Source: a virus (taxonomy: Duplodnaviria > Heunggongvirae > Uroviricota > Caudoviricetes). Taken from it: a stretch of 37,059 nt of DNA. Under the pieces are notes generated by a model. That model searched no databases. It was not told the origin of the DNA and was given only the letters and a program-made list of their open reading frames with translations. The DNA lies in the IMG/VR virus record IMGVR_UViG_2657245588_000006. One strand, 5' to 3'. Within the stretch, counting starts at the first letter, position 1. Every line of letters starts with the position of its first letter. Of this stretch, positions 9,867 to 34,341 are shown piece by piece. A program made the position numbers and the translations under genes.

Positions 9867-9922
9867 AAAAAAATCCCGTAAAAAAAAGCCGCACAGGCGG
9901 CCTTTAGTGATGAAGGGTAAAG

Positions 9923-28510: not shown

Positions 28511-29137
28511 ATGGAAACGGTTGGTCAGCGTATAAAAGCTCTGAGAAGAGTTACCAGAACGTCCCAGAAAGAATTGGGTAAATTTTGTGGAGTAAGCGAC
28601 GTTGCTGTGGGGTACTGGGAGAAAGACATCAATACCCCTGGTGGGGAGGCACTTTCGAAATTAGCGAAGTTCTTCAATACGTCAATAGATTACATTCTTT
28701 ATGGTGCTGAGTTTGAAGGCAAACTCGTCACAAACATGCGCAGAGTTCCTGTAATATCGTGGGTTCAGGCTGGGCAGTTTACTGAGTGCAGGGCAGCAGA
28801 AGTGTTTAGTGAAGTGGACAAGTGGGTAGATACATCATTAAAGATTGGTGATAACTCATTTGCATTAGAGGTTAAAGGTGACTCCATGACTAACCCTAAT
28901 GGCCTCCCAACAATACCAGAAGGCGCAACAGTGATTGTAGATCCAGATGCAGAACCTCGTCATGGAAAAATAGTCATCGCTCGACTTGATGGAACAAACG
29001 AAGCTACAGTAAAAAAATTAGTCATCGATGGCCCTCAAAAGTTTTTAGTGCCATTAAATCCTCGGTATCCCAACATCCCTATCAATGGTAATTGCCTTAT
29101 CATTGGTGTAGTCAAAGGAGTTCAATACGAACTCTAA
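28511..29137 (+). CDS. cI: Prophage repressor, cI-type (HTH_XRE + S24 LexA-like autopeptidase)
   Basis: 208-aa ORF; N-terminal HTH, C-terminal GDSM Ser motif; divergent from the cro-like gene. Confidence 0.85.
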   Translation: METVGQRIKALRRVTRTSQKELGKFCGVSDVAVGYWEKDINTPGGEALSKLAKFFNTSIDYILYGAEFEGKLVTNMRRVPVISWVQAGQFTECRAAEVFSEVDKWVDTSLKIGDNSFALEVKGDSMTNPNGLPTIPEGATVIVDPDAEPRHGKIVIARLDGTNEATVKKLVIDGPQKFLVPLNPRYPNIPINGNCLIIGVVKGVQYEL

Positions 29138-29152
29138 GACCTCTCTTCTCTA

Positions 29153-29219
29153 ACTAAGGCACCGAACTAAGAAAAGTTTGGTGTTTTCTCTTGCCATAAT
29201 AACTAAGTTAAGTTAGATT
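29153..29219 (+). promoter_or_regulatory. Operator-like repeats and candidate repressor-controlled promoter after cI
   Basis: ACTAAG at 29153, 29166 and 29203; ACTAAG-N5-TTAG site at 29203..29217; -35 TTGCCA (29191..29196), 17-nt spacer, -10 TAGATT (29214..29219). Confidence 0.4.
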
Positions 29220-29321
29220 TTATGTCAAAGATAACGAACAGGCAGGACGCCCACGAAGTAGCCGCCGGTGGCGTATGAATGACCGGATGATTCGTTAAAT
29301 ACTATGTGTAAGAGAGCGCAA

Positions 29322-29524
29322 ATGAACCGTTATTTCACATGCTCGTTTTGTGGCGCAAACGAGCTGCAGGCAAAAAAATCATCGCCAAAGGCGGAAAAGA
29401 TGAAGTTGCTATCTGCTCTGAGTGCGTAGTCTTGTGTGTCGGAGCATTAATCAATATCAGCACAACTATTCAGTTCACACCAAATGAGAATGCGCCTTTA
29501 GATGCGCGGAAATCTGGAGGTTAA
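29322..29524 (+). pseudogene. ClpX-type C4 zinc-ribbon small protein, split by a -1 frameshift in an A7 tract (29372..29378)
   Basis: Frame A (ATG 29322) encodes MNRYFTCSFCGANELQAKK; frame B continues IIAKGGKDEVAICSECVVLCVGALIN to the stop at 29524; joined they give C7-x2-C10-x21-C32-x2-C35. Confidence 0.5.
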
Positions 29525-29532
29525 AGAACAAA

Positions 29533-29808
29533 ATGAAAGTCCAGATTTTAAACAATAGTGGTGAAGTCGTTTGGTCATACGACATAGCCGCTCCTGTAGA
29601 TCAGAGCGGCGATAGCTGGACCAATGGGAAACATCAGATTATGGCTGGAGTTGTATTCTCTTTACACCGTGCTTTGGAACAGGCTGAAGTATTTCCATCA
29701 GACCCTGAATGGAAATGGCCTTTTTCTATTTGTCCAAATTCGGAGAGCACATTTCAGAAAATTGGTCAGAAAGTCGCACTCGAAGAGCATCAGCCAACTG
29801 TTTTCTGA
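29533..29808 (+). CDS. Hypothetical protein (91 aa)
   Basis: ATG 8 nt after the zinc-ribbon stop; GGAGG 12 nt upstream; 3' end overlaps a convergent minus-strand ORF. Confidence 0.45.
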   Translation: MKVQILNNSGEVVWSYDIAAPVDQSGDSWTNGKHQIMAGVVFSLHRALEQAEVFPSDPEWKWPFSICPNSESTFQKIGQKVALEEHQPTVF

Positions 29809-29971
29809 TTTTTTCAGGTAACTCGTCGGCATCGCAGAAACAACAACGCTCGATCATGTTGAAAGCCGATTCGTAGAACTGTTTCTGCTGAGTGTCGCTG
29901 AGACAGGAAAAGAGCGACGTTACGATGATTTTATTAATTGCATTATCAAGTTCTTTTTCATCAAAAGTCAT
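29726..29971 (-). CDS. Hypothetical Cys-containing protein (81 aa), opposite to the cI operon
   Basis: AAGGA RBS 7 nt upstream of the ATG; contains CCFC; overlaps the 3' end of the 29533..29808 ORF by 83 nt. Confidence 0.4.
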   Translation of the reverse strand: MTFDEKELDNAINKIIVTSLFSCLSDTQQKQFYESAFNMIERCCFCDADELPEKIRKQLADALRVRLSDQFSEMCSPNLDK

Positions 29972-30209
29972 TTGATTTTCCTTTTATGTATACGGGCTTA
30001 AAAGGATACCACCGAGCCTGAAGTGGTGAAAAGACAGGCACATAACAGCTAAGTATTTTCAACCAGAGAGAATCCTTAGCGTTGTGGTGAATGCGGCTCA
30101 GCGCACGCGGGTTAAGGTTGAGGCTGACAGTCGACCTTCTGTGGATACCCACCCGTCTGGTGTGCAACCTTCGCCAGGCACCGGGAGGCACCCGGCACCA
30201 CAACTTTAT

Positions 30210-30271
30210 GCTGTGTGTAGTCTTGGCGGTACCAGTTTGTACCCTTGCTTCCGGCTGGTACCGCTCTTTTT
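30210..30271 (+). ncRNA. DicF-like small RNA candidate with intrinsic terminator
   Basis: CUUGGCGGUACCAGUUUGUACCC resembles my recollection of the DicF core UUUGGCGGUAUCAGUUUUACUCC; stem GGCGGTACCAG (30226..30236) / CTGGTACCGC (30255..30264) followed by TCTTTTT. The 5' end is not defined. Confidence 0.4.
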
Positions 30272-30408
30272 ACAAAACAGAGAAGAGCATCACCGGACGA
30301 CGGGCTCATAACCCAATCCATCCGGGCGGCTGCCACCGCAGGTGTTCTTCTCTGTTTTGTGGAGAAACCAACCGACCTTGCAGGGTCGATATGATGAGGA
30401 GCAGCAAA

Positions 30409-30835: not shown

Positions 30836-31660
30836 ATGTCTCAGAACTTAGACGCAACCGCAATTAATCAAATCCATGCCCTTATTTCTGCTCAGGGTGT
30901 TAATGAAATTATCAGTAAGATTGGTGCCGATGCTGTGGCATTGCCTGAGAATTTCCGCATTCATGATCTGGAAAAATTTAATTTAAATCGCTTCCGTTTC
31001 CGTGGTGCGCTTTCCACTGCCAGCATCGATGACTTTACCCGTTATTCTAAAGATCTTGCAGATGAAGGCACCCGCTGCTTTATCGATGCTGATAATATGC
31101 GTGCCGTCAGTGTGCTTAACTTGGGTACTATTGATGAACCAGGTCACGCAGATAACACCGCCACTCTCAAACTGAAAAAGACAGCACCGTTCTCTGCCCT
31201 GTTGTCTGTTAACGGCGAGCGTAACTCCCAGAAGTCACTGGCAGAATGGATTGAAGACTGGGCCGACTACCTTGTGGGCTTTGATGCTAATGGTGACGCC
31301 ATTCAGGCAACCAAAGCTGCTGCGGCGATCCGTAAAATCACAATTGAAGCGAACCAGACCGCTGATTTTGAAGATAATGACTTCAGCGGCAAACGCTCCC
31401 TGATGGAGTCTGTCGAAGCGAAGACCAAAGACATTATGCCTGTGGCATTTGAATTTAAATGCGTTCCGTTTGAAGGTCTGAAAGAACGTCCGTTTAAATT
31501 ACGCCTCAGCATTATCACTGGCGATCGTCCTGTACTGGTTCTGCGCATTATTCAGCTGGAAGCGGTGCAGGAAGAAATGGCTAACGAATTTCGTGATCTG
31601 CTTGTTGAGAAATTCAAAGACAGCAAAGTAGAAACCTTTATTGGTACTTTCACCGCCTGA
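30836..31660 (+). CDS. YfdQ-like protein (DUF2303)
   Basis: 274-aa ORF with GAGGA RBS; length and position match YfdQ of CPS-53 as remembered. Confidence 0.55.
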
Positions 31661-32950: not shown

Positions 32951-33160
32951 ATGGCAAAACTAATGAAAGCGAGCCAATGGGGACGCCGTGAATTCTCTAA
33001 TGGCTCAATTCCTGACAACCGAACGATAAAACGCTGGGTCGAGAACGGTCTGCTCATGGGGCGTATCGTGGACGGTTCTGTTTTTGTCTGCGAAACAGAA
33101 AAATGGGGAGTCGACTCAATGGTTAGTCAAGCTGTTCGCAAGTTAATAAATGAGGGATGA
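32951..33160 (+). CDS. xis: Excisionase
   Basis: ATG at 32951 with GGAG RBS; 69 aa with a lambda-Xis-like pattern (TIKRWVENGLLMGRIVDGSVFV); stop overlaps the int start. Confidence 0.65.
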   Translation: MAKLMKASQWGRREFSNGSIPDNRTIKRWVENGLLMGRIVDGSVFVCETEKWGVDSMVSQAVRKLINEG

Positions 33161-34341
33161 CCATGGCGGCAAGGCCACGTAAAAAAGAATACAGACATCT
33201 TCCTGATTATCTGGTTTTTGATAAAGATCGAGGTGTTTATAAATTCACACTTATTACCGGAAAAAAGAAAAATATAGGTAAGGATCGGGCAATAGCCGTT
33301 GCAATCGCCAGAGAGTACAACCTGAGGATGCGATCAGAATTATACCCATCAGTGGATAATCTTATTAGAGAATCTGGCGGGGTCACCGGAGAAGCAAAAC
33401 CATTTGCTGAACATGTCGATCACATAATGGCCAGAATTATCGAAGACGAACGACCTTCCCAGAGTACCTTAGATGACTGGAAAAATGACGCTCTACGCGT
33501 AAAAGCGTTTTTCGTAAATGTTCCGGCATGCGATATCGAACTTGAACACGTTAATGCCTACATCAACAAATATCATGCCAGCGCATCCGCAAATGTGCAG
33601 AACAGAAAGGTCAGCTTTCTTAAAAAGTTGTTCTCTTATGCGGTCGATGAATCACTAATGCAGGATAACCCGGCCATCAGAAAAAAAATGCGTAGGACTG
33701 ATGAGAAGAAAAGACGGCGCCTGTCACTCGAACATTTTATAGCTATCAGGCAGGCCGCTGCACCATGGTTAAGAACAGCAATGGACCTAGCATTGCAGAC
33801 TACACATGCACGACTCGAAGTATCGCGAATCCGTTACTCAATTCGCGAACCTAAAGACGGTTTATGTGGATGTGTTTGGTTCGAACAACCACAAAATGGC
33901 ATATATGGTACACTATACATCCATAGGCAAAAAGTACAAAAAAAGGAGGCATCACATGTTGCAATACCAATTGGTGAAGAATTGAAACGGATAATTGACA
34001 ATAGCCGTGACAATGTGGCCAGTCCCTTTGTCGTTCATAGAATCCCAGAACGGCATGTTAAACGCAGTAAAGAGGTTTCGCACCCAACTCAAGTTGCACC
34101 AGATTATTTGAGTCGGTCATTCTCTTCCGTGCGAGACAAACTCGGACTATGCAATCATCTAGCAATGGAACAAAGACCTACATTCCATGAAATAAGAGCT
34201 TTGGCAGCTCACCTATTTGATAAACAAGGGATTGATCCGCAGGGACGAATGGCACATAGCGATGCGAAATCTACTAAAATTTATACTAAAAATCATATAG
34301 ATTGGATTGTTGTCCCTCATGGAGAAATTAAAACCGGTTAG
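33157..34341 (+). CDS. int: Tyrosine integrase
   Basis: 394-aa ORF; C-terminal HEIRALAAH and Tyr in STKIYTKNH; a start at 33163 has the better RBS spacing. Confidence 0.85.
   Translation: MTMAARPRKKEYRHLPDYLVFDKDRGVYKFTLITGKKKNIGKDRAIAVAIAREYNLRMRSELYPSVDNLIRESGGVTGEAKPFAEHVDHIMARIIEDERPSQSTLDDWKNDALRVKAFFVNVPACDIELEHVNAYINKYHASASANVQNRKVSFLKKLFSYAVDESLMQDNPAIRKKMRRTDEKKRRRLSLEHFIAIRQAAAPWLRTAMDLALQTTHARLEVSRIRYSIREPKDGLCGCVWFEQPQNGIYGTLYIHRQKVQKKEASHVAIPIGEELKRIIDNSRDNVASPFVVHRIPERHVKRSKEVSHPTQVAPDYLSRSFSSVRDKLGLCNHLAMEQRPTFHEIRALAAHLFDKQGIDPQGRMAHSDAKSTKIYTKNHIDWIVVPHGEIKTG

Follow-up and report, generated by a model that had tools for sequence, protein, structure and literature searches.

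A one-base deletion in a homopolymer probably interrupts a lambdoid prophage gene that encodes a free ClpX-type zinc-binding domain

Introduction

A small gene of a lambdoid E. coli prophage encodes a C4 zinc ribbon like that of the ClpX N-terminal domain, but the two halves of the ribbon lie in different reading frames on either side of a run of seven A (A7). The question is what this interruption represents. The original prediction, made from the letters of the DNA, had offered a sequencing or assembly error, a recent pseudogene, an on/off switch based on slippage, and a programmed frameshift. The locus was analysed within the window, which is the whole 37,059-nt stretch of DNA (IMG/VR record IMGVR_UViG_2657245588_000006).

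We conclude, with a probability of about 0.8, that A7 is a genuine derived deletion of one base (A8 to A7) in a mutation-prone homopolymer of a gene for a stand-alone zinc-binding domain (ZBD) in a lambdoid early-left operon. The intact gene is already known, being annotated in hundreds of genomes, and A7 is a textbook homopolymer indel.

Reading frames and layout of the gene

The sequence at 29322-29524 is as originally described: it encodes a C4 zinc ribbon in two frames that meet at the A7 run. The gene lies on the + strand. Its 5' part (29322-29378, frame A, +) comprises codons 1-19 and includes the first CxxC knuckle. ATG 29322 is the start chosen by PGAP in genomes with A8, and a Shine-Dalgarno-like AAGAGAG (29310-29316, +), as read from the sequence, is located 5 nt before it. 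The homopolymer at 29372-29378 (+) was counted as exactly seven A, reads A_AAA_AAA in the 0 frame, and is A8 in the intact allele. From ATG 29322, frame A gives MNRYFTCSFCGANELQAKK and then 16 out-of-frame residues, SSPKAEKMKLLSALSA, up to a premature TAG (29427-29429, +) that ends a 35-aa product without the second CxxC.

The 3' part (29379-29524, +) is in the -1 frame and comprises codons 20-67 plus TAA, with the second CxxC knuckle and a helix. Past the run this frame reads IIAKGGKDEVAICSECVV...SGG or, as a longer stretch, IIAKGGKDEVAICSECVVLCVGALINISTTIQFTPNENAPLDARKSGG, and ends with the TAA at 29522-29524. The product joined by a -1 shift is 67 aa long with cysteines in the arrangement C7-x2-C10-x21-C32-x2-C35, the two knuckles being in different frames in the window as written. 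We rejected ATG 29339 as a separate start for the second half. It has no Shine-Dalgarno-like sequence, its ORF lacks the first knuckle, and PGAP never uses it in A8 genomes. In genomes that carry the window's A7 allele the zinc-ribbon gene is left unannotated by PGAP, and annotation pipelines pass over this allele without a pseudogene flag.

Domain identity and fold

The split ribbon is a genuine ClpX-type zinc-binding domain, and a chance pattern is ruled out. The joined 67-aa protein scores 41.4 bits against Pfam PF06689 (zf-C4_ClpX; cut-off 27), whereas the two ORFs taken singly score 15.9 and 21.7 bits, both below the cut-off, and cover adjoining parts of the profile (positions 2-15 and 11-34). 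In the PDB, the joined sequence matched chains of the ClpX zinc-binding domain (2DS5, E 2.5e-4). An AlphaFold model of the joined protein has a mean pLDDT of 68, with values of ~73-86 over residues 1-40 (moderate confidence). The top six Foldseek matches to this model in the PDB are all ClpX ZBD chains, including 2DS5, 2DS6 and 2DS8 (probability 0.99-1.0, TM on target 0.78-0.83, rmsd 1.4-1.7 A), in agreement with the ZBD fold of beta-hairpin knuckles and a C-terminal helix.

The protein shares with the N-terminal ZBD of E. coli ClpX (1OVX, 2DS5-2DS8) the C4 CxxC...CxxC motif, 36-40% identity, an rmsd of ~1.5 A and the core motifs CSFCG and ICxECV. Unlike E. coli ClpX, it is a stand-alone product of 67 aa without an AAA+ module, and its inter-knuckle loop has an insertion of three residues (AKGGKDEVA versus AGPSVY in E. 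coli ClpX). It is not the ClpX unfoldase itself, as the AAA+ module (~360 aa) is absent from the 67-aa product. The NCBIfam ClpX equivalogs match only at profile positions 6-48 of ~415, with 23-26 bits versus cut-offs of ~360-370. The joined protein matches phrog_5259, a family without assigned function, with 108.5 bits. The gene itself is represented by RefSeq WP_001083098.1 and phrog_5259. Once repaired, the window product has 100% identity to the RefSeq protein, and the gene is in the same place after the prophage repressor. The window allele differs from the gene for WP_001083098.1 in having A7 rather than A8, and hence is split over two frames.

We searched 1.84 billion representative proteins for relatives and obtained 158 matches at E up to 1e-3. 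Nearly all of those listed are short proteins with one or more ZBD-like stretches, most of them 57-300 aa long. One relative of 2,505 aa (P0030) contains 22 matched stretches that resemble zinc-ribbon residues 21-51, and many other listed matches (57-465 aa, and one of 1,428 aa) have two to four tandem stretches similar to the ClpX ZBD.

Tract length in homologous prophages

Positions 29150-29850 (701 nt) were compared with 5,426 complete E. coli genomes by megablast. The window's 701-nt haplotype, with A7, occurs at 100% identity in 20 of these genomes, and no A8 copy of this exact haplotype was found among the 5,426. A second group of matches has ~99% identity, is one base longer and is annotated as 'ClpX C4-type zinc finger protein'. 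In the alignment, the 5' half of the gene differs only by A8 in place of A7, and the translation of the A8 gene is exactly the window protein joined by a -1 shift, that is, WP_001083098.1.

In a census, probes of 81 nt and 82 nt that span the run identified 98 records in 97 of the 5,426 genomes. A8 with a single intact ORF accounts for ~69 of the 98 (64 exact matches to the 82-mer and ~5 with one SNP), A7 for 24 (exact matches to the 81-mer) and A9 for five, all of which are CX isolates of one clone from one study. A collection of 15 billion proteins has the intact protein on at least 1,000 contigs. The 61-aa ORF of the A7 form is on 17-24 contigs from NCBI assemblies, a JGI metagenome, ENA (contigs with k127/k141 names) and Logan (contigs of public runs). 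The contigs with k127/k141 names are probably short-read assemblies. In all 10 of the 10 loci that were fetched, the run is A7.

The original prediction had pointed to A-tract length in homologous prophages as a way to choose among its explanations. This comparison establishes a one-frame A8 gene as the majority form and speaks against both sequencing error and a conserved programmed frameshift. The mutational option, worded originally as a recent pseudogene, is favoured, given that most homologous prophages have A8 and an intact ORF.

Origin and inheritance of the A7 allele

The A7 allele occurs on several backgrounds. The conserved module spans 29232-29557 (leader and gene), and the flanks outside it are mosaic. 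In addition to the window haplotype, which has none of the SNPs listed here and is present in about 21 complete genomes, A7 was found with 29494A (strain 135, otherwise identical to the A8 strain CE0007a), with 29440T and 29443G beside a different immunity region and downstream gene (RMDEC465), with 29443G in three further flank combinations, and with 29318A, 29328A and 29443G. Thus, A7, A8 and A9 all occur on 29443G, and both A7 and A8 on 29494A. One viral contig has a further A7, on an 'IRF' variant. From this spread over SNP and mosaic backgrounds we favour the reading that the deletion arose more than once and recurred several times, over a single old allele that was recombined widely. In strain 135 (L004, 3102-4314), an IS3-family element is inserted just downstream of the locus.

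Replication slippage at the A8 hotspot would delete one A. Normal decoding of A7 would then give the 35-aa peptide, with one CxxC knuckle and no zinc site. Such a peptide should be unable to form the site, and therefore the A7 allele would be essentially a loss of function. The exact wild-type protein would be restored by an unprogrammed -1 ribosomal slip, or if RNA polymerase inserted one extra A. Since the 0-frame A_AAA_AAA would let a slip restore the wild type, the A7 allele may be leaky. The A7 copies carry no additional disabling mutations, which fits a recent origin and fits equally well continued selection on a leaky gene.

Other copies of the gene have decayed in different ways. The first knuckle (first CxxC) is lost in P0008, a plasmid copy, P0007 has a 2-nt deletion, and P0003-5 are fused at the C-terminus. 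These varied lesions fit a dispensable prophage gene that is decaying in several ways. Some of these copies are fused to an alternative frame of yfdQ, giving the same peptide as the window ORF at 31002-31175.

Among the alternatives to a simple deletion, one that we regard as improbable is a selected contingency switch, in which replication slippage among A7, A8 and A9 toggles the ClpX-like gene and yields mixed populations (phase variation). Three tract lengths do exist in nature, A7 accompanies A8 on several haplotypes, and the run is kept in Salmonella phage 118970_sal3 at 77% nucleotide identity (A8, GCA AAA AAA ATT). However, tract length is stably inherited within clones: A7 was found in six of six Ec-050 derivatives and in about a dozen 4.85-Mb genomes that share the chromosomal coordinate of the locus, and A9 in five of five CX isolates, with no variation within any of these clones. 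This clonal stability disfavours a selected switch. A run of A8 is also short for high-rate switching when the mismatch repair of the host is proficient. Furthermore, the tract is lost in other members of the family. Salmonella phage F1055 has A6G (GCA AAA AAG CTC), and the viral contigs L134 and L124 encode AMKIV/AIKIV without an A run; the Salmonella homologues have the gene in one frame. Preferred E. coli codons for A-K-K-I yield GCA-AAA-AAA-AT in any case. The A run is thus not a conserved signal across the gene family.

Recoding at the A run

A deletion is also better supported than a programmed shift, whether -1 ribosomal frameshifting or transcriptional slippage, by which the two-frame A7 form would be functional and would yield two products, one short and one long, at a fixed ratio. 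We consider this very unlikely. The run does read as a slippery X_XXY_YYZ heptamer in the 0 frame (GC-A_AAA_AAA-T, 29372-29378), and the -1 product is the conserved protein. Yet the two-frame state is a minority (24 of 98 records), the tract is missing in some family members, and no conserved product corresponds to the 0-frame extension.

We identified no convincing stimulator near the run, either as an upstream Shine-Dalgarno-like site or as a downstream fold. The -1 shift of dnaX is stimulated by a Shine-Dalgarno-like sequence at a spacing of 10-14 nt, whereas the closest upstream AGG here is ~2 nt from the run. The only nearby downstream structure is a 4-bp CGCC/GGCG hairpin 4 nt past the run, and the folding of the 72 nt that follow the run is no better than that of shuffled sequences (z = -1.0). 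No Rfam family was found over the frameshift region. An 'astro_FSE' Rfam match at 29495-29514 (11.6 bits, E 7.5) was dismissed as noise.

The site resembles the A_AAA_AAG sites of dnaX and the IS3 family, and the adventitious C-AAA-AAA of pDEST17 (PMC1851650), in being a slippery heptamer of lysine codons, and a -1 shift would restore the window ORF as it does in the pDEST17 deletion clones (PMC1851650). Such heptamers can shift efficiently: under T7-driven overexpression, C-AAA-AAA by itself caused -1 frameshifting at 25-60% and so rescued 1-nt deletions, with no heterogeneity in the transcripts (PMC1851650). Unlike at the dnaX, IS3 and pDEST17 sites, the homologues of the window gene do not keep the shifted arrangement, and a stimulator was not found. 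Poly-A transcriptional slippage in Citrobacter rodentium tssM1 (A11; PMC4256274) likewise concerns an ORF that is interrupted and has a run of A where the two frames meet. In contrast to tssM1, the run in the window has only 7 nt, and transcriptional slippage is usually efficient only from ~9 A (PMC1088944); the interrupted state of the window gene is, unlike that of tssM1, the non-conserved one. AAAAAAA is under-represented in E. coli genes, for which slippage and indel mutation are given as likely reasons (PMC4066793).

The least probable reading is a sequencing or assembly error in a genome that truly has A8. Long-read and older pyrosequencing platforms commonly undercall homopolymers, but A7 is present in 24 complete genomes, including the identical 701-nt haplotype without an A8 counterpart, and recurs across independent NCBI, JGI, ENA (k127/k141) and Logan contigs, so that a platform-specific error is unlikely. 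A7 is a real allele.

Possible function of the intact protein

In isolation, the ClpX ZBD forms dimers and serves as a docking site for the SspB tail, lambda O and MuA. Judging from the fold, the intact phage protein would most likely be a free ZBD that competes or pairs with the N-domain of host ClpX for adaptors and substrates that dock on the ZBD. The targets of such competition could be the SspB tail, or substrates of the lambda O and MuA types. Produced early from PL, the phage ZBD could compete or heterodimerise with the host ZBD and so shift ClpXP specificity during early lytic growth. The original suggestion that a free ribbon could be a decoy or adaptor for ClpXP is, in these terms, reasonable. 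We found no characterised phage protein consisting only of a ZBD, and no experimental work on one, in the literature searched.

Lambda CIII, a small protein of the PL operon that inhibits the host protease FtsH, may be compared by analogy only: both are small early-left proteins of lambdoid phages, and the window protein is likewise a proposed modulator of a host AAA+ protease. Unlike CIII, with which it has no kinship in sequence or fold, its proposed target is ClpXP rather than FtsH.

A more speculative extension, which we consider improbable, is that the A run tunes a phage ClpXP decoy. The A7 form would then make a low, set amount of full-length ZBD by -1 slippage, and lineages would shift among A7, A8 and A9. 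If so, lineages would adjust the strength of their interference with host ClpXP during induction. If A7 is instead a plain deletion, as we prefer, the allele in itself matters little. The near-isogenic natural prophages with A7, A8 and A9 are, however, handy material for studying the role of a free ZBD in lambdoid phages.

Prophage context and the early-left operon

The window is a lambdoid prophage with lambda-like late genes. On the minus strand are a cro gene of the P22-Cro type, a cII gene of the CP76 type and a replication gene. The cI-type repressor gene (28511-29137, +) encodes 208 aa with Pfam HTH_3 and Peptidase_S24 domains; in identical prophages, its product is labelled a LexA family protein. 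An early-left (PL/OL-type) control region at 29152-29219 (+) contains operator half-sites and a promoter-like site. AACTAAG is present in five copies in the window, three just downstream of cI (29152, 29165 and 29201) and two in the cI-cro spacer (28424 and 28473). The promoter-like TTGCCA-17-TAGATT (29191-29219), downstream of cI, overlaps the AACTAAG repeats. These elements bear out the earlier description, in which the zinc ribbon is the gene that comes first after cI and a promoter with operators.

The layout downstream of cI matches the lambda OL/PL arrangement, and the zinc-ribbon gene is therefore at the 'N position', first in the early-left operon. This layout predicts that the gene is repressed in the lysogen and that its expression comes early once the phage is induced or infects a cell. 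The next gene of the operon (29533-29808, +) encodes 91 aa and belongs to phrog_3195; a GGAGG of its own lies within the 3' end of the ribbon gene. This ORF and a convergent one at 29726-29971 (-, phrog_3311) overlap by 83 nt; both families are without assigned function, and which of the two ORFs PGAP annotates varies between genomes with the same DNA. A PADLOC search gave no match to a defence system.

Farther downstream, 30051-30273 (+) is a GC-rich structured region with a terminator at its end. It matches the full Rfam model of STnc100 (RF02076) with 44.3 bits, just below the 47-bit cut-off (E 4.7e-8). PGAP calls this stretch a 'frameshifted hypothetical protein' in related genomes; the call probably represents a mis-called sRNA gene.

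Other A runs in the window are A8 at 9880, 16352 and 33681 and A7 at 9867, 29011, 32730 and 33938, and there are six T7 runs. A second frameshift was suspected in the integrase gene (33157-34341) from a missing Pfam catalytic-domain match and A7/A8 runs inside the gene. It was rejected, as the 394-aa ORF is continuous and the HxxR...Y motifs are present.

A structured leader RNA upstream of the gene

Between the PL-type promoter and the zinc-ribbon gene, the early-left transcript carries at its 5' end a conserved structured RNA motif of 71 nt (29230-29300, +). The motif has an invariant core, GGCAGGACGCCCACGAAGUAG, and two strongly covarying helices, with a P2 loop that reads GGCRUAYGAA. Scanning viral contigs for an 18-nt core recovered at least 120 loci with at least 87 distinct versions, and covariation was computed on 45 of the distinct versions. 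Compensatory changes are present in five of the six pairs of P1 and in all six pairs of P2; one P2 pair is GC in 19 sequences, CG in 18, AU in four and UA in four. The covariation score is 0.46, versus 0.14 for shuffles and at most 0.10 for slid registers. With a covariance model, the window leader scores 88.3 bits and is a single copy in the window. Most of the loci listed have a -10-like hexamer whose end lies 13-16 nt upstream of P1.

Rfam gave no match to the leader, its core sequence is absent from the papers searched, and the motif is apparently undescribed. A relationship to the put sites of HK022 was considered and rejected: both blastn and the covariance model were blank over HK022 22.0-32.5 kb, and the window has no second (putR-like) copy of the leader. 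A terminator directly after the leader was also rejected as a general feature (one of 117 loci). The motif may be an undescribed early-operon leader or an RNA of the antitermination type, and it could act on antitermination or affect transcript stability. In 11 loci of viral contigs a small hairpin comes after the leader, and after the hairpin GCTCTTTAA, which resembles the boxA antitermination consensus; this boxA-like sequence is absent from the window.

A 326-nt probe of leader plus gene matches ~1,395 of the 5,426 complete E. coli genomes, whereas the gene itself is in 97. The phages SfV, ST64B and mEp460 have the leader motif followed by other genes.
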